From the IMG/VR virus record IMGVR_UViG_3300027533_000012, positions 1-41,190 of that record: DNA of 41,190 nt; one strand, written 5' to 3'. Within the stretch, counting starts at the first letter, position 1. Each line of letters begins with the position of its first letter. The notes below the pieces were generated by a model. The model saw only the letters and a list, made by a program, of their open reading frames with translations, was not told the DNA's origin and did no database searches. This stretch comes from a virus. The position numbers and the translations under genes were made by a program. Below, one piece after another: positions 3,153-41,190 of the stretch.

Positions 3153-3935
3153 TTAGACCTCCACCATCTGCGGACCCGCCGTGACGCTCACGCGCGGCGC
3201 CGGGACGGACGCCGGTAGTGGCTGATCCGTCCAGTTGACGGCCATGATGGGCTCGTAGTCGCGCGCAAACACCGTCGCCCACTGCCCATCGTGAAACTGC
3301 GGCCACACCGCGAACGTCGCCATATGGCCAAATCGGATATTCGGGTCGCCCCAGACGTCAATCCCAGCCCGCTTCGCCGCTTGGTAGAACGCGATGTCCT
3401 CCCAGACCTCATCCACGGGGCCTTCTTGCCCTGTCGTGAACCACGGACCCGGCAATGTCTCAAACACGTCCATGCGCGTCAGGACGCCACCCATCGTGCC
3501 CGAGACCAGCGGCACGAGGCCATTCGACGCGACCGGCGGCACCGTCGTGACGACATTCCACCCCGCGCCGGCGCCGAACTGCTGCGACCAGATGGGGAAG
3601 AACCGATCCGACCCTTCCACCGTCCGACGAAACAGCGTCAACCCGATGACAATCGATTCGGGATGCTCCAGAAACTTCAGGAGCGTGTTCGGCATACACA
3701 GCTGGTCATCGTCCAGCCAGAGCAGCCACTGGCATCCCTGCTGCTTCGCCAACAGCACCGCTTGATTCCGAGCCGCGGCAATCGACGGGTTCGCCGACCG
3801 GATGAGGCTGACGCCCCCCGGCTGATTCCACATCAGACCGGGAGGCAATCTGAGCCCATACACCGATTCCCAAAACGCCGTAAACCGGGCATTGTCCCGA
3901 CAACACACGACAACCGCACCGGTAAACTGCGTCAC
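3153..3935 (-). CDS. GT-A fold (family-2-like) glycosyltransferase
   Basis: 260 aa with a GTG start preceded by GGAGA. Motifs read by eye: VVVCCRDN first strand, AARNQAVLLAKQQGCQWLLWLDDDQ (DxD motif) and WEDIAFYQAAKRAG (ED motif). Confidence 0.7.
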   Translation of the reverse strand: MTQFTGAVVVCCRDNARFTAFWESVYGLRLPPGLMWNQPGGVSLIRSANPSIAAARNQAVLLAKQQGCQWLLWLDDDQLCMPNTLLKFLEHPESIVIGLTLFRRTVEGSDRFFPIWSQQFGAGAGWNVVTTVPPVASNGLVPLVSGTMGGVLTRMDVFETLPGPWFTTGQEGPVDEVWEDIAFYQAAKRAGIDVWGDPNIRFGHMATFAVWPQFHDGQWATVFARDYEPIMAVNWTDQPLPASVPAPRVSVTAGPQMVEV

Positions 3936-19488: not shown

Positions 19489-19558
19489 GCTTGATTAGCT
19501 CAATTGGTAGAGCACGGGCTCACGCCCGGTGTAATGGGTTCGAATCCCATATCAAGCT
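19489..19558 (+). tRNA. tRNA-like gene with a truncated 4-nt anticodon loop (non-decoding or pseudo-tRNA)
   Basis: Acceptor stem GCTTGAT/ATCAAGC, D arm GCTC-AATTGGTA-GAGC, anticodon arm CGGGC-TCAC-GCCCG, variable region GTGTA, T arm ATGGG-TTCGAAT-CCCAT, then U73 followed by CC. Confidence 0.75.
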
Positions 19559-19586
19559 CCTGCATAGGAGCAACCGACACTCAGAA

Positions 19587-21547: not shown

Positions 21548-21945
21548 CCCCTGACCGCCCCGACGAGACGCTGGCACCGCTGCTGACGAAGTTGCGTGAG
21601 CCTGTCGTATTCCGCAGTCGATACGACAGCAGCCTGATGAACCTTGCGGCTGAGACTATCGAGCAGGAGCGCCGTCTCTCCGCCGAGAAGGACGCCACGA
21701 TTGCCGCGCTGACTGCGGCATGGGCTGACCGCGCGTCAAAACTTGCGGACACGCAGCACGGGCTGGAGACGCACGCGCGGATTACAGACCGCATGCTGGC
21801 CGAGAAGGACGCCACGATAGCCGACCTTGAACAACGAATCCGCAGGTTCTCGGAAGAAGTGCGGCACGTGTCGGTGCGGATGGCGAACAGCCTGATGACG
21901 CCTGAGCGATTGCGCGAGCTGCTGAAGCCCACGGAGGCCCCATGA
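21544..21945 (+). CDS. coiled-coil protein, paralogue of the N-terminal part of 21942..23156
   Basis: 133 aa starting MTPDRPDETLAPLLT and ending ...PTEAP. Contains two LSAEKDAT/LAEKDAT repeats. Confidence 0.55.
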   Translation: MTPDRPDETLAPLLTKLREPVVFRSRYDSSLMNLAAETIEQERRLSAEKDATIAALTAAWADRASKLADTQHGLETHARITDRMLAEKDATIADLEQRIRRFSEEVRHVSVRMANSLMTPERLRELLKPTEAP

Positions 21946-23156
21946 CCCCTGACCGCTGCGCCCGTTGTGGCGACACACGCGCCGACCACAAGGTCGAGTC
22001 GTGCCATGTATTCCACGCTGCCCCTGACCGCCCCGACGCCCTCGCGCCGATCCTGACGCCCGAAAACGCCGAGAAGGCACTGCGTCAGTTCGTGCGCGAC
22101 GTTCGCCCCGGTTCATGCCGCACTATTTCGTGCGCGTTGAACGGCACGTCCTGCGATTGCCCGCTGTGCCTCATCGACATCATCGCGGACAGGAACCAGC
22201 CCGAAACCGTCACGCTGCGCCGTCTCTCCGCCGAGAAGGACGCCAAGCTGGCCGAGATGAAGGCCCGGATCGAGAAACACGAAGCCACGCCGTGGCCCGG
22301 TTGCCGTGTCCTGTCCATCGGGGACGAGTGCGAATGCTCACTGTGTCGATCCGAAAAGACGCGCAATGGGTATCGCATCGAGCGCGACGAGGCCGAGCAC
22401 TACGCGAAGGAATTGCGGGCCGCCCAACTAGCCGAGCAGTCCGCCACCCTCGCGCGGCTGGAGAAGGAGCGGGACAGGATCGCAAGCTACGCGGCCTCAC
22501 TCGCCAAGTCACTATCACCGTTCCTGTGCGATTGGTGCCGTGGCACTGGCGAGGACAGCGACAACGATGGCCGAGGTCCGTGCGGATCGTGTGGCGCAAC
22601 CGGCTTTGTTCGGATCGATAAATTGCGCGAACGTCTCGCCGCCCGTGAGCAGGAGATCGCCACCCTGAAGGCCGAGCGGGACGAGATGGTCAAGTCGGAC
22701 CAGTTCCGCGCGTTCTTCGAGAAGTGTCGGCCCGTGCGTCAGCGCAACACCGAGGCGCGCGAAGCCGAACTCCAGAAGCTCCACGACGACGTGACGCACT
22801 GGATCATGGTCGCGGACGGCATCAACCACGACACCCGCTGCCCGAACCACTTCGCCGGAGACGCCCAGAGCCAACCGTGCTTACGCTGCCAACTGGAGCA
22901 GGCCCGGCAGCGGATCGCGCGGCTCACCGAGGCGCTGGAGACGGCACGAGGCGCACTCGCAGACATCTCGCAGTCGCGCGACATGAACCTGACGCTGGCC
23001 CGCAAGAAGGCCCGACGCATCTACGCAGCCACGTCGCTAGCCGACGCCCCGAGGACGGAGACAACATGCGACCACGTCTGGTTCTCGCTGGATATTAATC
23101 CACACCACGTCTCGTGCCAGAAGTGTGGCGCGAAAGCTCCTGACGGGCTATCCTAA
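21942..23156 (+). CDS. coiled-coil, multi-CxxC protein with a DnaJ-type zinc-finger element
   Basis: 404 aa starting MTPDRCARCG and containing PDRPDALAPILT and LSAEKDAKLAEM. CDWCRGTG is an exact CxxCxGxG and CGSCGATG is a near copy. Other Cys pairs are also present. Confidence 0.55.
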   Translation: MTPDRCARCGDTRADHKVESCHVFHAAPDRPDALAPILTPENAEKALRQFVRDVRPGSCRTISCALNGTSCDCPLCLIDIIADRNQPETVTLRRLSAEKDAKLAEMKARIEKHEATPWPGCRVLSIGDECECSLCRSEKTRNGYRIERDEAEHYAKELRAAQLAEQSATLARLEKERDRIASYAASLAKSLSPFLCDWCRGTGEDSDNDGRGPCGSCGATGFVRIDKLRERLAAREQEIATLKAERDEMVKSDQFRAFFEKCRPVRQRNTEAREAELQKLHDDVTHWIMVADGINHDTRCPNHFAGDAQSQPCLRCQLEQARQRIARLTEALETARGALADISQSRDMNLTLARKKARRIYAATSLADAPRTETTCDHVWFSLDINPHHVSCQKCGAKAPDGLS

Positions 23157-23164
23157 CCACGGCC

Positions 23165-24505
23165 ATGCGCTTCCACCCCACGCGCGGCACGCTCTGCGGC
23201 GGCAAAGGCACCATCGCCCTCTGGGTCTGGGACTGGTATACCCACGAACCCAAACGGCTCCTGACCAATCCTGACGGCTCCCAAGCGATGGGCGGCGATA
23301 TCTGTTGGTTAGCCGAGACGGCCATCAGCCAGGTCGTCAACCCGACGCCGAAACTGGTCCAGTTCCCGACCGCGCTGAACTACCAGCAGCAGCCGTGGCC
23401 GCAGTCGGAAGGCGGCGGCAACCAGATGCGCGCCACCGGCAAGGTCGGATGGGCCTGCACCTTCGCCAACCCGCTCAACACCTACGGCACGTATCCCGAT
23501 GGCACACCATTCACCGGCTCGAAAGAATGGATTCTGGACGCCGACGGCGACACACTTGTGTTTTCTGACCCAGCAGACCCCACATGGGCTGAACTTGAAC
23601 CGTATCTCAAACTCGGATTACATGACTACTACCCGCGCACGGTTGATGCGCGTTGGGCGCCGGACTACCTACCCGATTCCGTGCGTCTCAAAGGCCGCGT
23701 GCTGGTCTACTGCCTCGCGCATGGCGTGAAGCTCCAAGTCGAGATTGACGGCCTCCCGGTGCAGGTCCAGACGACCGGAGACGGGCAATGGTCGCCGCTC
23801 GGGTTTGAAGTGAACGGCGTGCTCTACCTCTGGTATTTCGCCAGTGACGCGCTCGGGACCATCTTGCACCGCGCCGACGATGCCACCCGAGGCGCCAGAA
23901 CGCCATCTGCGTGGTCGAAAGACGTCTGGATGGACCCGAGTGGCCGTGTCTGGCTCGGGTTCGCCACCAACGAAGCGGAGAGCATCGACAGCGCGCAGGT
24001 CGTCGCGCTCGATTCGCTGCCGTGGGAAGCCTTTCACCATCCGGACCCACCCGATCCGCCTGACCCGCCGGACCCGCCAGACCCTCCGGTGCCACCTATT
24101 CCCCCGGAGCCACCTGTGCCGACCACGCGCAAAGTCTCGATTGCGACCCGTGTCCTCAATACCCGCTTCGGCGAACCCTCGCAAGGCTACGAGGAGCGGC
24201 CGACGTTCGACAAGCCGTTATCCCCCTCGGACCCGTGGCCGATGAAGGCCGGGATGATTCAAGGCGACGAGACGTATACCCTCCGGACCTCGCCGACCGG
24301 CGTGCCGTATCTCCAATGGCCGCACGGGCAAGTCATTGCCGTGCGAAAGCCCAACGGCGAACTCGGCGAGACGGCGTGGCCGGGAGAGTCTTACGAACCA
24401 GGTATCGACGAGCGGCTGAAAGCGACCGCTCAGTCTGGCGTCTATGTCGAAGCGGAGCCGCCGGCTGGACGTGCCGCGGTAGCGTTCGCGCTGGTGCTCC
24501 TTTGA
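23165..24505 (+). CDS. upstream ORF of a candidate two-frame gene; contains a (PDP)n Pro-rich linker; function unknown
   Basis: 446 aa with coding GC3 throughout. The linker is HPDPPDPPDPPDPPDPPVPPIPPEPPVP. The ORF ends CTC CTT TGA C. Confidence 0.7.
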   Translation: MRFHPTRGTLCGGKGTIALWVWDWYTHEPKRLLTNPDGSQAMGGDICWLAETAISQVVNPTPKLVQFPTALNYQQQPWPQSEGGGNQMRATGKVGWACTFANPLNTYGTYPDGTPFTGSKEWILDADGDTLVFSDPADPTWAELEPYLKLGLHDYYPRTVDARWAPDYLPDSVRLKGRVLVYCLAHGVKLQVEIDGLPVQVQTTGDGQWSPLGFEVNGVLYLWYFASDALGTILHRADDATRGARTPSAWSKDVWMDPSGRVWLGFATNEAESIDSAQVVALDSLPWEAFHHPDPPDPPDPPDPPDPPVPPIPPEPPVPTTRKVSIATRVLNTRFGEPSQGYEERPTFDKPLSPSDPWPMKAGMIQGDETYTLRTSPTGVPYLQWPHGQVIAVRKPNGELGETAWPGESYEPGIDERLKATAQSGVYVEAEPPAGRAAVAFALVLL

Positions 24506-24506
24506 C
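24500..24506 (+). promoter_or_regulatory. candidate programmed +1 ribosomal frameshift site CUU UGA C (prfB type)
   Basis: The exact heptamer lies at the only interval (24483-24503) where frame 2 and the start-less frame 0 can be joined. Confidence 0.5.
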
Positions 24507-25478
24507 GACCCGGCCCACCCGTGGCGCACTGGCGCTGACCTGCTACACGTCCACGGCGATTACGGGTCCGTCACCGACTCCCGCGGCTGGGCGCAGTTCT
24601 CACCGTTCTTCCTGACCTTCCTCGACGGCTGGCATCCTGAATACGCGGAGGAATGGGCGCAGAACTGGCGCAGCCGCGGCTACACGCACATCGCGCTCGG
24701 GCGGAACTACGACTACCCCGGCTCCCCGATTCCAGGCCGAGACTTCACCCCGCAGCAGTTCTGCGGCTATGTCCGTCGCGTGCTCGACATGGGCTTCAGC
24801 CCGATCTGCTTCCTCGCCGCCGACACGCCCGAGCAGCCCATCCTCGAGACGACGCAGGCACTGAAAGACGCGGGACTGCTGCCCTACGTCATCTGCGTGC
24901 CGGCGTGGGAACCGATACCGACGAACTACTGGCGCAGTGTGCAGATGTCGAATGCACTGGAGGGCATGAAGGCCATCGGCGGCAGCGAGATTGTCCTCGG
25001 GGTTCACTTGCAGCCGGGACGCTGGTCGATGGCGTCCTTCGCAGGCGTGATTCCGGCAACTGACCCGACACCACCCGGCACCGCCGTGCTCGAGGAGTTC
25101 GTCGACCCCGAGACGGGCGTGCTGATGAAATACCTCATCGAGGACGACGACCCGTGGCGCGGTGACGAGCAGGATGCGTGGAAGTCCCACGGCGGGCAAT
25201 ACGTGGACATCTTCCTGTATCAGTTTGAGCACGGGTTCACGCAGACGACGGCCCCGGACTGGCAGAACCGCTGGCGCGATGGGATTCCCCGGATGGGCAA
25301 CGGCTTGAACGGCTGGCGCGTGATGCCTGTCTGCGCCTTCGAGACGGTGCTCTATGATTCCTACCGCGGGAACTGCAACGAGACACGCGCGCGGGAGATT
25401 GCCGGCGAAGCCCGAGACATTGCCTGGAAAGAGTTCGGCGTGTCCGTCACGTTTGGAAACGGTTGTCCGCTTACTTAG
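24504..25478 (+). CDS. start-less +1-frame ORF with a TIM-barrel glycoside-hydrolase-like domain (tentative), probably read through from 23165..24505
   Basis: The frame is open from 24483 with no ATG, GTG or TTG before 24780, yet GC3 over 24540-24779 is about 85-90% by hand count. VPAWEP and LYQFEH are candidate catalytic Glu motifs. Confidence 0.55.
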   Translation, partial: DDPAHPWRTGADLLHVHGDYGSVTDSRGWAQFSPFFLTFLDGWHPEYAEEWAQNWRSRGYTHIALGRNYDYPGSPIPGRDFTPQQFCGYVRRVLDMGFSPICFLAADTPEQPILETTQALKDAGLLPYVICVPAWEPIPTNYWRSVQMSNALEGMKAIGGSEIVLGVHLQPGRWSMASFAGVIPATDPTPPGTAVLEEFVDPETGVLMKYLIEDDDPWRGDEQDAWKSHGGQYVDIFLYQFEHGFTQTTAPDWQNRWRDGIPRMGNGLNGWRVMPVCAFETVLYDSYRGNCNETRAREIAGEARDIAWKEFGVSVTFGNGCPLT

Positions 25479-25633: not shown

Positions 25634-25637
25634 AGCT

Positions 25638-25889
25638 ATGCGTCCCATCAATCCGATCCGCACGCTTCGAGAGGAGTTGTATCCGCATCAGATTGAGAAT
25701 CGCGTCGCACTGAACGCGCTATTGGACGGGTCCCAACAGCATTCGCGTATCACCCTGCGCTACGAGACGCCAGCGCCTAGATACTTCATCGACATGGCCG
25801 CGCTGCGCTTTCTCGGTGCGCGACTACTGGACTCTGCTGCGATTGGACTGCTCGTGTCCGTCGCCATCTACGTCTGGCGCGCACTGTGA
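25638..25889 (+). CDS. small protein with a C-terminal transmembrane segment (possible lysis-associated)
   Basis: 83 aa with the hydrophobic span AAIGLLVSVAIYVW. Confidence 0.4.
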   Translation: MRPINPIRTLREELYPHQIENRVALNALLDGSQQHSRITLRYETPAPRYFIDMAALRFLGARLLDSAAIGLLVSVAIYVWRAL

Positions 25890-26101
25890 AGCATCCGCTA
25901 TCGCCGGAGTTCTACGAGGCGTTGACCGAGTGGGATGAGCACCTTCGGCGGCTATCCTGCGCCTACATACAGGGCATGGCCGCTGAATACGACCGCATCT
26001 TCACCGAATCACCAGCACTCCCGGCTCCCGATGGAGCCAGCACACGGCGCCCACAACCGCCGCGAGTAGACCTGCCCACCAGCGGGCTCGGCCCAGACTA
26101 G
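25886..26101 (+). CDS. hypothetical protein; the 3' end overlaps the M50 gene antisense
   Basis: 71 aa with ATGA-type coupling. The last 101 nt are antisense to 26001..26840. Confidence 0.35.
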   Translation: MKHPLSPEFYEALTEWDEHLRRLSCAYIQGMAAEYDRIFTESPALPAPDGASTRRPQPPRVDLPTSGLGPD

Positions 26102-26840
26102 GCTCCAGCCACGACACCGGACTCGGCGCTGGCCCCGTGAGCAGCATCACCACGCCGACAAACAGCCACGTCAGCAGATGCGTGGCCTGCCAGGTCACGG
26201 GAATCCAGCAGGCGTAGGACACCCACTGCGCCCGCTTCGCCCCGATGAGGGCTGAGACAATCTGCCCGCCATCGAACGACCCATACGGCAGCAGGTTCAC
26301 GCCGGTCATCACCAGCCCAATCCACCCCGCCACCGCCACCGGATGCCAGACGACGGTCTGATGGCTGTAGAGATACTTCTGCCACGCCAGCGCCAGCCAC
26401 GGCTGTCCGAGCCGCGACAAGCCGTCTGAGGCGTCAGACGGAGCGGACCAGCCCATCGACACCAGCAGGATGACGATCGCGGCCGCAAAGCCCGCCAGCG
26501 GCCCGGAGAGGGCCACGTCGAACAAGGCGCGGCGAGAGGGGAACGGACCCGCGACACGGATGGTCGCCCCGAGCGTGCCCGTGACCAGGAACGGCGCCGG
26601 GATGAAGTAGGGCCCGGTCCATCGGATGCGGTAGTGGTCGATGACGACCAGATGGGCGGATTCGTGCAGGCCGATGATGCCGTGGAGCGCGGCGGAGAAG
26701 GCCAGCCCGTAGCCCCACGAGGCCCAGAACGGCAACCAGACGCCCGTGGCGGCCTCGTGGTAGCCGATGCCGTGGAACATGCCCGCCAGCGTCGTGGTCG
26801 CCCACGTCGCCAGCCAGAGCCCCACGACGCGACGGGTCAT
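26001..26840 (-). CDS. M50-family site-2 (intramembrane) metalloprotease
   Basis: 279 aa, polytopic. It has HESAH (an HExxH motif) in a hydrophobic segment and NLLPYGSFDGG (the NxxPxxxxDG second S2P motif). Confidence 0.8.
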   Translation of the reverse strand: MTRRVVGLWLATWATTTLAGMFHGIGYHEAATGVWLPFWASWGYGLAFSAALHGIIGLHESAHLVVIDHYRIRWTGPYFIPAPFLVTGTLGATIRVAGPFPSRRALFDVALSGPLAGFAAAIVILLVSMGWSAPSDASDGLSRLGQPWLALAWQKYLYSHQTVVWHPVAVAGWIGLVMTGVNLLPYGSFDGGQIVSALIGAKRAQWVSYACWIPVTWQATHLLTWLFVGVVMLLTGPAPSPVSWLEPSLGRARWWAGLLAAVVGAVCWLHREPGVLVIR

Positions 26841-27025
26841 CCCTTCGGCGGCGGGAAGATTTTGTCGAGGAGGGACGTCTGCGCTTCGAGCTTGGAGGGG
26901 AGCTCGTCACGCAGCCGGAGCGTCATCGGGTTGTGCCGACGGAGCCAGCGGTCGGCCAGCCGATGCACGAAGGACACCCACCAGATCGGACGGGTCATCA
27001 CCATACCGGATGGGACGGTCATCAT
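26837..27025 (-). CDS. small protein coupled to the S2P gene
   Basis: 62 aa with ATGA overlaps at both ends and good GC3. Contains TRPIWWVSFVHRLADRWL. Confidence 0.5.
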   Translation of the reverse strand: MMTVPSGMVMTRPIWWVSFVHRLADRWLRRHNPMTLRLRDELPSKLEAQTSLLDKIFPPPKG

Positions 27026-27234
27026 TCGGCCTCCCGGTTTCTGAGACAACGTGAGAGGGCGGACACGAGCCGGTCGTTGTGTCGGGCGAGGTCGTCGCGC
27101 TGTTTCAGAATGTCCCTCACCGCGAACGCCGGCCATATCCACCCCTTCAAAAACGCCACCACGATCAACGCCAGCAGTCCCGGCGCGGACAGACTCGTGA
27201 CCTTGCCAATGTCGGCCCACGGCAGCTGGTCCAC
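27022..27234 (-). CDS. single-pass membrane protein with a C-terminal coiled coil (holin/spanin-like)
   Basis: 70 aa from GTG 27234, which lies 2 nt after the preceding stop and is preceded by GGGTGG. The hydrophobic span is APGLLALIVVAFLKGWIW, followed by RDILKQRDDLARHNDRL. Confidence 0.5.
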   Translation of the reverse strand: MDQLPWADIGKVTSLSAPGLLALIVVAFLKGWIWPAFAVRDILKQRDDLARHNDRLVSALSRCLRNREAE

Positions 27235-27236
27235 GG

Positions 27237-27497
27237 CTAGCCACCCTGATTGCAGTCGAGCCCGAGCGGGCCGCAATACCACCACTGGACGAGTTCCCAC
27301 CCCGAGCCGAAGTTCTCCTGCCACCAGGCATCGTTCCGGCACAGTTCGCAGGTAATGCCGGATTCCGTGTTGGACGACTTCTTCAGCGCCGGATGGGCCA
27401 ACGCCTTCGCCAGCGCGGCAAACCCCGCCGACGGGTCATAGCCCTGTGCCCGGAGTAGTTCGACAATCGTCCCGAGCTTCTTCGGATACTGATGCAT
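27237..27497 (-). CDS. small Cys/Trp-rich protein
   Basis: 86 aa preceded by AAGGA. The C-terminus reads CELCRNDAWWQENFGSGWELVQWWYCGPLGLDC. Confidence 0.55.
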   Translation of the reverse strand: MHQYPKKLGTIVELLRAQGYDPSAGFAALAKALAHPALKKSSNTESGITCELCRNDAWWQENFGSGWELVQWWYCGPLGLDCNQGG

Positions 27498-27512: not shown

Positions 27513-28112
27513 TTACGGCACGTAAAGCGACTGGATCAGATACCCGGATGTCACCGGGAGGAGCACCATTTTCCCACCCGAGGCCAAGGAATACGCACCC
27601 GTATCCCCGTCGATCGTCTCGGACCCGTCCGGCGTCACCGACCACGCCACGGTGCAGTCGTTCCAAATCGATAGCGGCATCTGCCGATCCGCCGCCGCTT
27701 GGAGCGTCAGCACCTTCGCCACGGTGCCCGAGAACGTGACGAAGTTGTCATCATCCGTGACGGTGTAATTGGCGACCAGGTTCTTCTGGCCTTCCGCAAG
27801 AATCGTCCCGAGCTGCGAGAAGAACGTCTGCCCGATGTCCTCGACGCCGAGATACTGCCGAACCTGCACCATGTCCGCGTCGAAGATGGTGACGTCGTAG
27901 GCGCCGGGCTCGAGGAACACCGTCGCGTAGCCGGACGCATCCAACTGGACCGGGTTCATGTTCGCCACGTCCATGTCGGCCGTCGTCCACGTATCTTTGT
28001 CGGTATCTTCGCCCGCGACCTTGAACTGGACGAACCCGAGCCCGAGGTTATCCCCGTTCTCGTCTCGGATGCCATCAGCGGTCAGGTAGAACAGCGAACC
28101 AGGCACGCTCAT
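27513..28112 (-). CDS. virion/tail-associated protein
   Basis: 199 aa, beta-rich, with a 4-nt overlap on the upstream 626-aa gene. Confidence 0.4.
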   Translation of the reverse strand: MSVPGSLFYLTADGIRDENGDNLGLGFVQFKVAGEDTDKDTWTTADMDVANMNPVQLDASGYATVFLEPGAYDVTIFDADMVQVRQYLGVEDIGQTFFSQLGTILAEGQKNLVANYTVTDDDNFVTFSGTVAKVLTLQAAADRQMPLSIWNDCTVAWSVTPDGSETIDGDTGAYSLASGGKMVLLPVTSGYLIQSLYVP

Positions 28113-39474: not shown

Positions 39475-41181
39475 TTACGTCAGGTCCAAGGTGACCGCCG
39501 TACGATTGCCGTCCGCATCGACGGTCGCCGTCACGCGGTCCTTCGTATCCGCCAGGTCACGAATCGCCACGGTGGTCGTCGCCGCACCAGACAACTTCCC
39601 GCCGGCGCCGGAATTGTTCAGCCGAAGCGACTGACGCACCGTCACCGAGCCGTCCACCGCATCGTCCAGGATGGCGTCCACGCCCGCCGATGACAGCGCA
39701 TAGCCGGTCTTGTCGTTGTTGGTCGTGACTGTCACGCCGGCCACCACCGAGGCCACAGACCCGACCACGTTCCCGCCGACGTTCCCGGTGACACTCGCCA
39801 CCGATCCCACGACGTTGCCGCCTACGTTCCCCGTCACTGACCCGACCGCACCGGTCACGGAGCCTACCGCACCCGTGACCGACCCGACCGAACCCGACAG
39901 ATTGCCCGTGATGTTGCCAATGATGTTCGCCGTGAGCGCCGTCGTGATGCTGGTCGCCGCGTTCGTGCCACCGCGCAGGAGGCCATTCGTCGAACCAGGC
40001 GCGATGTCTGGCAGCGCCGTGCCGACGATATGCCCCGCTGTGCCGGCGCCATACGCACCCGGCAGCGCCGTGCTCCACGGGTCGCCAGCCGACCCCGCAT
40101 CCGACAACGCCTTACCGGCGCTGCCCGCCGTCGTATGACCGGACAACTGCTCATCCCACACGCCGTCGGCAATCTCGTTGACCGCATCGGTCGCCAGCGC
40201 ATCGGCGTCAATAGCGCCCGTGGCAATGGCCGCTGCGTTGATGGCGCCGGCCGCAAAACTCGCCGACGTGATGCCACCCGAGGCTACCGAACCGACCGAT
40301 CCCGTCACGTTCCCGCCGACGTTGCCGGTCACGGAACCCACAGAACCCGTGACGTTGCCGCCCACGTTCCCAGTGACCGACCCGACGGCCCCCGTGACAC
40401 TCCCGACGGCGCCTGTCACAGACCCGACAGACCCAGACAAGTCGCCCGTGATGTTCCCCGTGATGGCCGCACGCATCCCGACACCACCACCCGCCGCGGC
40501 GGCGATACCGTCACCACCCGCACTCGCGCCACCGGTCGCCAGGAGCCCGTCGCCGGTCCCGTTTCCGGTCAGGCTCATGCCGTTGCCGTTCGTGGCCGCT
40601 GACGTGGACGTGATGCCGTTCCCGGTCGCGCCCGTGCCGCTGGCCGCGTTGATGCCGTGGCCCGTGCCGTTACCCGTCGCCGTAATCGCCGACGTGTTGG
40701 ACGTCTGACTCGTGATGTTCAGCCGCGAGAGCGCCAGTGTCGCCGTGCTCGAGCCGAGCGTGCCGCCATGCGCGACCCCATCGGCCAAGATGGCATCGGC
40801 TTCACCGCCGGCCGAGACATCGAGCGTCCGCGCCGCCGTCGTCGGCATCAGCGCCGATCGGGCTTCAATCGAGAACTCCGCGACCACATACCCGACGACG
40901 GACGTGCCGCCGACGGTGCCCGTCGTGATGACCAACTGGTAATTCGTGGCCGTGGCATACCCGTTGCCACCCGACGCGACCACGCGCACATTGTTCAGGC
41001 CCGTGACCGAGTCGAAGTCCACCGACAACGTAATGCCAGCCGTCAACTGCGTGGTGGAGTTCCCCGGATAGGCCGAGATGACCGGCGACCCGGCCAACTG
41101 CGTAGGCGCCCCGGTCGTCGTGACCGTGCAGAACTTCGTATCGAAGGTGTCACCAAGCCGGAAGTCGCCAATGTATGCCAT
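39475..41181 (-). CDS. tail fibre with Gly-rich repeat blocks
   Basis: 568 aa. GNG-type repeats occupy residues ~165-235, and two 60-aa (TGxVGSV)n blocks occupy 241-300 and 421-480. The start codon lies inside the terminal repeat. Confidence 0.65.
   Translation of the reverse strand: MAYIGDFRLGDTFDTKFCTVTTTGAPTQLAGSPVISAYPGNSTTQLTAGITLSVDFDSVTGLNNVRVVASGGNGYATATNYQLVITTGTVGGTSVVGYVVAEFSIEARSALMPTTAARTLDVSAGGEADAILADGVAHGGTLGSSTATLALSRLNITSQTSNTSAITATGNGTGHGINAASGTGATGNGITSTSAATNGNGMSLTGNGTGDGLLATGGASAGGDGIAAAAGGGVGMRAAITGNITGDLSGSVGSVTGAVGSVTGAVGSVTGNVGGNVTGSVGSVTGNVGGNVTGSVGSVASGGITSASFAAGAINAAAIATGAIDADALATDAVNEIADGVWDEQLSGHTTAGSAGKALSDAGSAGDPWSTALPGAYGAGTAGHIVGTALPDIAPGSTNGLLRGGTNAATSITTALTANIIGNITGNLSGSVGSVTGAVGSVTGAVGSVTGNVGGNVVGSVASVTGNVGGNVVGSVASVVAGVTVTTNNDKTGYALSSAGVDAILDDAVDGSVTVRQSLRLNNSGAGGKLSGAATTTVAIRDLADTKDRVTATVDADGNRTAVTLDLT
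39742..39921 (-). repeat. fibre repeat block 2 (residues 421-480)
   Basis: 53 of 60 residues are identical to block 1, with many synonymous nucleotide differences. Confidence 0.85.
40282..40461 (-). repeat. fibre repeat block 1 (residues 241-300)
   Basis: Sequence TGNITGDLSGSVGSVTGAVGSVTGAVGSVTGNVGGNVTGSVGSVTGNVGGNVTGSVGSVA. It lies exactly 180 codons upstream of block 2. Confidence 0.85.
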
Positions 41182-41190
41182 TAGTTCGCC
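41064..41190. repeat. terminal direct repeat, right copy (exact copy of 1..127)
   Basis: Read directly. Confidence 0.95.

Follow-up and report, generated by a model that had tools for sequence, protein, structure and literature searches.

Cellular site-2 proteases (S2Ps) of the M50 family are signalling switches in sterol sensing, envelope stress and sporulation, and their substrates, such as SREBP and RseA, need helix-destabilising residues. In B. subtilis, the SpoIVFB gene lies in the spoIVF operon directly downstream of the gene for a membrane-anchored partner, and small membrane proteins restrain the enzyme until a signal comes at a set time. There are also S2Ps that act on peptides or on proteins without a transmembrane segment, for instance Eep on pheromone precursors and SpoIVFB on pro-sigma-K. 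RseP of E. coli cleaves single-pass membrane proteins of 50-100 residues and neutralises the membrane toxin HokB (PMC10470546). Full-text searches of the literature returned no paper on a phage-encoded S2P. Here, a gene of this kind was analysed in the IMG/VR virus record IMGVR_UViG_3300027533_000012, whose whole length of 41,190 nucleotides (nt) is called the window below. The gene encodes a protein of 279 residues and is the last of four adjacent minus-strand genes, for proteins of 86, 70, 62 and 279 residues, which together are called the cassette. Our analysis indicated that it is almost certainly a functional, selectively maintained, phage-borne gene for an M50/site-2 intramembrane zinc metalloprotease. 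An earlier note, made from the DNA alone, had placed four open reading frames at 27497-26001, and all four were found there, with the quoted peptides CELCRNDAWWQENFGSGWELVQWWYCGPLGLDC, HESAH and NLLPYGSFDGG.

The M50/S2P identity proposed in that note was borne out, as profile searches, motifs and predicted fold agreed; a lack of HMM or structural support for the fold, which the note had named as refuting, did not arise. The hidden Markov model (HMM) of the Pfam family Peptidase_M50 (PF02163) matched residues 47-204 with 57 bits against a gathering cut-off of 27.2 (E 2.3e-15). The first motif, H59-E60-S-A-H63 (residues 59-63), lay within a predicted helix of residues 42-69, and the second motif, N182-L-L-P185-Y-G-S-F-D190-G191-G192, occupied residues 182-192. 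When the protease was aligned with 27 homologues (28 sequences), H59, E60, H63, N182, P185, D190, G191 and G192 all fell on invariant columns. A profile of the M50 alignment searched against all PDB sequences matched RseP, the M. jannaschii S2P (MjS2P) and SpoIVFB. The AlphaFold2 (AF2) model, with a predicted local distance difference test score (pLDDT) of 91.2 and a predicted template modelling score (pTM) of 0.89, was a helical membrane bundle ending in a membrane helix, and a beta-hairpin (residues 74-96, strands 74-82 and 88-96) directly followed the HExxH helix. In a Foldseek search of the PDB, SpoIVFB (8VJM, 8VJL) and RseP (9J82, 7W6X) were the only high-probability neighbours, at modest TM-scores of 0.40 that were partly due to extra domains in the targets.

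SpoIVFB was the best structural neighbour of the model (8VJL/8VJM, Foldseek probability 1.00, TM-score 0.40) and uses the same HExxH and NxxPxxxxDG chemistry, although the two proteins were only 14-17% identical and SpoIVFB carries a C-terminal CBS domain that the phage protease lacks. RseP belonged to the same family (profile E 5.8e-6 to 2.3e-4; Foldseek probability 0.92-0.99), and the phage beta-hairpin after the catalytic helix resembled the membrane-reentrant loop of RseP. However, RseP has 450 residues and tandem PDZ domains, and the phage protein was not an RseP equivalog, since TIGR00054 was unmatched and a cellular relative reached 24 bits against a cut-off of 147. Neither a PDZ nor a CBS domain was matched in Pfam, NCBIfam gave no match, and in the model the 279 residues leave no space for a PDZ insert. 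The protein is thus predicted to be a bare catalytic membrane core without PDZ or CBS domains. It had all of the M50/S2P features examined (HMM match, both motifs and fold) and lacked the PDZ and CBS domains that mark the RseP (group I) and SpoIVFB (group III) subgroups.

The closest sequence relatives were minimal cellular S2Ps, uncharacterised proteins of ~280-360 residues, widespread in bacteria and archaea, which are also domain-less and carry the motifs HEMGHY and NLLPxGQLDGGH. The identity extended over most of the length of these proteins. There were 585 genomic M50 relatives, all 30-42% identical and scattered over many bacterial and archaeal phyla, and no signal for a host or donor lineage was obtained from them. 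The phage protease departed from the minimal cellular enzymes at near-invariant positions (G62A, Q188S, L189F and H193Q) and fits best in the minimal-core S2P subfamily, of which it would be a divergent member. The cellular genes lay in housekeeping neighbourhoods without the three small phage genes, and a conserved small partner upstream of cellular M50 genes was rejected as a general rule because the neighbours were heterogeneous. At the loci L010 (2400-2705), L039, L057 and L063, a small membrane open reading frame (46-101 residues, one or two transmembrane segments) overlapped the M50 start codon by a few bases. Upstream of P0009, a single-pass protein of 101 residues with a charged helical tail echoed the phage arrangement.

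Among viruses, the protease had no PHROG match. A tblastn search of 50,697 GenBank phage records found nothing with the phage M50 protein, a cellular M50 protein (P0033), the 86-residue protein or a 232-residue protein as the query, and the 70-residue protein gave chance-level matches only. Megablast of 21 kb of the window against cultured phages returned no relatives. No relative was confirmed in IMG/VR by pattern scans with the M50 protein, its alignment and the neighbouring proteins of 626, 199 and 394 residues, or among metagenome contigs scanned with the M50 protein, where the phage's own contigs seemingly lay beyond the reach of the scan. The searches thus found no relatives outside a narrow clade. 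The best viral structural matches were M50-annotated BFVD proteins (A0A6J5RHB6, A0A6J5SMS1 and A0A5J6VKI8), which come from a giant virus and two uncultured tailed phages. Like this protease, they have a virus-borne M50 fold; A0A6J5RHB6 matched the model with an E value of 8.4e-6 and a TM-score of 0.50. These proteins were merely 11-15% identical and were undetected by tblastn in the same phage set with either M50 query, and they are a precedent, not an explanation. In addition, 'peptidase M50' is named as one of the putative viral auxiliary genes in a study of a river virome (PMC12993620). The claim that a phage S2P is unusual was therefore supported by the lack of relatives in PHROG, GenBank phages and IMG/VR, but the gene is not unprecedented.

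The four genes were then compared among three haplotypes, namely the window, L013 (7.4 kb) and L094 (3.1 kb, ~86% nucleotide identity). The gene order of L013 was 210-414-479-630-199-86-70-62-M50, and its 2-nt gap and 4-nt overlaps were those of the window; L094 retained 70-62-M50 with both 4-nt overlaps. The order and overlaps of the 70-residue, 62-residue and M50 genes were therefore common to three haplotypes, and the 86-residue gene was also present in two. The amino-acid identities between the window and L013 were 98.8%, 88.6%, 93.5% and 93.6% for the 86-, 70-, 62-residue and M50 proteins, with ratios of nonsynonymous to synonymous substitution rates (dN/dS) of 0.04, 0.19, 0.36 and 0.18, respectively. 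For L094, the identities were 66.7% (70-residue), 69.4% (62-residue) and 95.7% (M50), with dN/dS values of 0.30, 0.32 and 0.09. The first motif was HESSH in L013 and HESAH in L094, the second motif was identical in all haplotypes, and M50-gene differences between soil-run variant contigs and the window were almost all at third codon positions. Each cassette reading frame had a codon-position base composition typical of coding DNA (guanine-cytosine (GC) content 0.80-0.87 at the third position, GC3, and 0.45-0.54 at the second, GC2), and independent gene callers predicted the identical four genes in three other assemblies. With dN/dS values of 0.04-0.36 and kept order and junctions, the genes are therefore under selection, and on these comparative grounds all four are real and constrained and travel together. 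Co-conservation in relatives, which had been named beforehand as a check, held in L013 and L094, within one narrow clade. As a separate observation, 12 of the 17 amino-acid differences between the M50 proteins of the window and L013 clustered at residues 40-75 (window 26840-26600), around the catalytic helix and where the beta-hairpin begins, and the rest of the protein was almost invariant between the two. L094 lacked this cluster though the N-terminal half of its 70-residue protein is L013-like, so that no co-variation can be claimed.

The translational coupling suggested by the earlier note was sustained in part: the 2-nt gap and the two ATGA overlaps are real, but they are not specific to the cassette. 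Among the 47 same-strand junctions in the genome, 9 were 4-nt overlaps, 6 were 1-nt overlaps and 17 were gaps of 0-20 nt. Because tight junctions are generic here, the case for a functional unit rests on co-conservation and not on the ATGA overlaps, and the recurrence of the same order and junctions in diverged haplotypes goes beyond chance. These data also bear on whether the protease gene is a mere passenger captured from a host, with unrelated small reading frames as fillers. Phages often carry stray host genes, the tight junctions are of the generic kind, and comparable M50 genes in metagenome bins of other phages have been catalogued as auxiliary genes and no more. However, the passenger explanation is contradicted by the purifying selection on all four genes and the order and junctions kept across three haplotypes, and it is further weakened by the intact catalytic residues, by an identity of ~40% to any cellular protein, which points to an ancient capture, and by the persistence of the phage across groundwater, sediment and soil samples. 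We regard it as very unlikely.

Table 1. Coordinates of the cassette genes and of other features in the window.
Feature	Coordinates	Strand	Remarks
86-residue protein	27497-27237	-	ATG start, TAG stop
70-residue protein	27234-27022	-	GTG start (not ATG); 2-nt gap (CC) after the stop of the 86-residue gene
62-residue protein	27025-26837	-	ATGA overlaps with both neighbours
279-residue M50 protease	26840-26001	-	ATGA overlap with the 62-residue gene; final gene of the late operon
199-residue acidic protein	27513-28112	-	15-nt gap to the 86-residue gene; N-terminus resembles phrog_26190 (2e-09)
83-residue tail-anchored membrane protein	25638-25889	+	Transmembrane segment 59-80 with 3 residues after it (hydropathy)
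446-residue protein	23165-24505	+	No family match
404-residue protein	21942-23156		Upstream of the 446-residue gene; no family match
tRNA-Val (anticodon CAC)	19489-19560	+	Called by ARAGORN and Rfam
260-residue glycosyltransferase-like protein	3153-3935	-	phrog_34859 (1e-9)

Analysis of the small proteins singled out the 70-residue protein. As anticipated for a single-pass membrane protein, hydropathy gave one hydrophobic segment (~residues 16-39, peak 2.01), which contained Pro, Gly and Lys. The C-terminal half of this segment, FLKGWIWPAFAV, itself with Lys, Gly and Pro, was invariant in the three haplotypes. The tail was charged and helical with heptad-spaced hydrophobic pairs (I42-L43, L49-A50, L56-V57 and C63-L64), a pattern compatible with a coiled coil. 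Its PHROG matches were weak (phrog_4565, 1.2e-4, and phrog_4511) and both were to families of unknown function; a homologue with 87% identity (P0077) had the same gene order. The size class of RseP substrates (50-100 residues) includes this protein and the 83-residue protein across the convergent junction, and the 70-residue protein would be the likeliest substrate or partner of the protease. The 62-residue protein was basic, without a transmembrane segment by hydropathy and without Cys, and combined an amphipathic Trp-rich N-terminal stretch, RPIWWVSFVHRLADRWLRR, with a conserved C-terminus, SLLDKIFPPPKG, that ends in FPPPKG. None of the three small proteins had a match in Pfam, NCBIfam, PADLOC or PDB sequences, and the 62-residue protein had none in PHROG.

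The 86-residue protein was soluble, with a helical N-terminal half and a C-terminal half rich in Cys and Trp, as had been described (four Cys and five Trp). The Cys residues were arranged as C50-x2-C53 ... C75-x6-C82 (positions 50, 53, 75 and 82). Its gene was the most constrained of the cassette (dN/dS 0.04). Among 5.8 billion proteins, homologues were confined to this phage clade, namely that of L013 (98.8%) and two further variants, and the four Cys were intact in all four variants. The two-part layout, the low dN/dS and the retained Cys residues would suit a precursor of a released peptide (signal, toxin or regulator) matured by the protease, as would the SpoIVFB and Eep precedents, and the 62-residue protein was considered in the same role. 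In contrast, neither protein has a hydrophobic segment, signal peptide or lipobox (judged from sequence and hydropathy for the 86-residue protein), the Cys spacing is closer to that of a metal-binding site in the cytoplasm than to that of a secreted disulphide peptide, and clade-limited homologues offer no family analogy. Peptide maturation is the weakest of the roles listed in the earlier note because the 86-residue protein lacks a hydrophobic segment and a signal peptide, and we consider it most improbable.

The genomic setting was defined by the ends of the window. The first and last 127 nt are identical (an exact direct repeat at 1-127 and 41064-41190); the assembly is therefore circular and the complete genome is 41,063 bp. 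Across the ends, the stop of a 423-residue reading frame and the start of a 568-residue reading frame share one base, and the virion operon is therefore unbroken over ~26.5 kb of the minus strand, where it begins at ~11447, passes position 1/41190 and ends at 26001. The window represents the genome of a P22-like phage, complete and assembled as a circle, with a GC content of 63%. PHROG matches on the minus strand included the large terminase, portal, scaffold, major capsid protein, P22-type head-tail adaptor, head-closure proteins and an ejection-protein-like gene, and the plus strand carried Erf recombinase, helicase, DNA methyltransferase, MazG and nuclease genes. The gene order and the complete circular genome confirmed that the M50 gene is phage-borne and closes the virion (late) operon. 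The acidic 199-residue protein upstream of the cassette (97% identical in L013) is context and not necessarily a cassette member. No sigma-70-like promoter, intrinsic terminator or hairpin was found in or after the cassette, including the convergent gap. Gaps of at most 15 nt and the lack of a predicted internal promoter or terminator suggest co-transcription with the late genes as the simplest reading. The same phage, 99.7-100% identical, was assembled in at least 5 independent metagenomes, and phage words were present in at least 24 runs from groundwater, sediment and soil.

The reading preferred here is a lysis-timing switch, which would run as follows. Late in infection, the protease would build up in the cytoplasmic membrane and cut small single-pass membrane proteins inside helix-destabilised transmembrane segments. 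Without a PDZ filter, it could engage such short proteins directly. The co-encoded 70-residue bitopic protein, with its invariant membrane motif, would be the prime substrate or gate-keeper, and the soluble 62- and 86-residue proteins would act as modulators. The outcome would be a proteolytic switch that sets the moment at which, as the cycle closes, the membrane is permeabilised and the cell lysed. In tailed phages, lysis genes are commonly located where the tail/ejection gene block ends. The switch is preferred because of this position, the late timing and the absence of recognisable lysis genes, and since RseP cleaves proteins of 50-100 residues, including HokB, the chemistry fits holin-sized proteins. 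The cassette may work in a manner analogous to the SpoIVFA/BofA-SpoIVFB arrangement, although the small phage proteins had no similarity to SpoIVFA or BofA and the SpoIVFB substrate pro-sigma-K has no counterpart here. It also recalls holin/antiholin/spanin cassettes, in which small late membrane proteins are clustered at the operon end, and the 70-residue protein, in its size and its single transmembrane segment, resembles some holins or a short i-spanin. Lysis cassettes differ in that no recognisable endolysin or lipoprotein o-spanin lies beside the phage cassette. The full chain, including the role in lysis timing, is put forward tentatively.

Family scans agreed with the statement that no classical endolysin or spanin adjoins the cassette; in none of the reading frames scanned, within the cassette or elsewhere in the genome, was an endolysin, holin or spanin family recognised. 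Holins have no universal signature. None of the cassette proteins matched a PHROG holin or spanin. The 62-residue protein has no Cys and the 86-residue protein, although it has Cys, lacks a hydrophobic signal at its N-terminus, so neither has the features of an o-spanin, and the recognisable muralytic enzyme beside small membrane proteins that characterises a canonical lysis cassette was absent.

Several points weigh against the lysis-timing switch. No muralytic enzyme for a holin to release was identified, and the literature search returned no phage lysis system that uses an intramembrane protease. The cassette junctions are within the genome norm, and adjacency is no proof of functional linkage. 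The comparative evidence comes from one narrow phage clade (the window, L013, L094 and variants), in which M50 is at least 93% identical throughout. By the positive-inside rule, the 70-residue protein was weakly predicted to be N-out/C-in, the opposite of classical type-II S2P substrates. Finally, the 83-residue protein was rejected as an obligatory substrate because it is missing from L094 and from one soil contig of run X6.

Cleavage of host proteins would be a different use of the same chemistry. The protease would act on host single-pass membrane proteins, such as anti-sigma factors in envelope-stress/ECF pathways and small membrane toxins or effectors from abortive-infection systems, so as to reprogramme or disarm the host late in infection, guided or held back by the small phage proteins. 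Cellular S2Ps act on RseA, FecR, pro-sigma-K and small membrane proteins including HokB (PMC10470546). The missing PDZ filter, which restricts RseP to pre-trimmed substrates, would allow attack on full-length host proteins, and the higher identity of the protease (93-96%) compared with the 70- and 62-residue proteins (67-94%) fits a conserved external target. However, no target can be named, and the cellular homologues, at 30-42% identity over many phyla, indicate no host pathway by descent. The late-operon position would be an odd time for host takeover, and no PADLOC or anti-defence family was matched. Host-directed cleavage is accordingly a doubtful alternative, though one worth keeping in view.

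The genes just upstream of the cassette raise another alternative. These encode ejection-protein-like proteins of 217, 394, 479 and 626 residues (phrog_598 match), and they were the fastest-evolving between haplotypes (80-90% identity in L013), which would fit an arms race. In P22, sieA holds the same relative place, just after the ejection-protein genes. By this positional analogy, the protease and its partners might destroy or block the membrane-inserting ejection proteins of incoming related phages and so exclude superinfection. SieA, a protein of the inner membrane, acts on the ejection-protein conduit (PMC10883804). It is not a protease, however, and has no homology to the cassette, whose proteins had no match in the phage database. 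SieA is expressed from a prophage, whereas no sign of lysogeny was found here: no integrase or repressor was recognised in the genome, on which ground lysogeny was dropped, and no integrated copy was found among 185,579 reference genomes. The cassette also lacks a predicted promoter of its own. Superinfection exclusion is thus unlikely.

On the other side of the cassette, a plus-strand operon converges on the M50 gene. Its final called gene, for the 83-residue protein, ends at 25889, 111 nt from the M50 stop, and the protein has an orientation like that of a pre-trimmed S2P substrate. L094 lacks this gene and has 18 nt between the M50 stop and a 47-residue gene; in one contig of run X6, it is also absent and 25634 is joined to 26001. 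The stretch 25635-26000 is therefore a presence/absence polymorphism in which 17-18 nt take the place of the segment between the M50 stop and a 48-residue gene. The 48-residue protein is helical, and the same side of the convergent junction also carries a gene for a TIM-barrel-like protein of 229 (or ~320) residues. The latter had 98 homologues, a confident AF2 model and weak generic barrel matches; its candidacy as an endolysin was dropped, as generic TIM-barrel matches were all that was found and no Pfam or PDB family was matched.

The upstream boundary of the TIM-barrel-like gene was unusual. The 446-residue reading frame ends in ...GTG CTC CTT TGA C (junction 24495-24512), and the +1 frame is open over 24483-25478 with no ATG, GTG or TTG before 24780. 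A homologue of 343 residues (P0079, 66% identical) aligned continuously from 24519. The alignment and the lack of a start before 24780 leave ~90 homologous TIM-barrel codons without a start, beginning at the upstream stop. CUU UGA C is a +1 frameshift site of the prfB type, with GGTG 3 nt upstream of it. In L094, the TIM-barrel-like gene stands alone (304 residues, own ATG) behind a different upstream gene. The site at 24495-24512 may be a programmed +1 frameshift that yields a fusion of ~770 residues, or the scar of a recombination event by which the gene is shortened to 229-232 residues.

Other features of the genome were noted in passing. The 446-residue protein has a proline-rich linker, PPDPPDPPDPPDPPVPPIPPEPPVP, around 24030-24110. 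Its gene and the adjacent 404-residue gene are large and late-looking, yet they lie on the 'early' strand, and their products may be tail fibre or depolymerase components. The glycosyltransferase-like gene is part of the virion operon and follows two genes downstream of that for the major capsid protein, and the tRNA-Val gene lies between a 187-residue gene and the next reading frame. The sediment metatranscriptome X17 contained an exact contig of 270 nt over tRNA-Val and one of 220 nt at 26988-27207, which spans the end of the 70-residue gene and the start of the 62-residue gene and was the sole mRNA-like exact phage match. A structured RNA at 26988-27207 was rejected, as the region showed no unusual structure (z-score -1.2) and Rfam found nothing. 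These two exact contigs are too sparse a signal to interpret, and DNA carry-over is possible.

The gene adds a divergent member to a known protease family and does so in an unusual place; that observation is solid. If the gene were a mere passenger, it would amount to a modest annotation note. A phage in which purifying selection maintains an intact minimal S2P must benefit from cutting a membrane protein at a set time, and no S2P role in a virus life cycle is described in the literature searched. The cassette could be the first virus-encoded module of regulated intramembrane proteolysis, a PDZ-less S2P with dedicated small partners that, by late cleavage of a single-pass membrane protein, would time lysis or disarm membrane effectors, although we hold this with considerable doubt. 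Use of the protease against abortive-infection membrane effectors or the ejection conduit of rival phages would be equally novel. A domain-free S2P of 279 residues together with a candidate substrate of 70 residues makes a compact system for the study of substrate recognition, and discovery of the substrate could reveal a new form of lysis timing, or a new mechanism of host takeover, anti-defence or exclusion.

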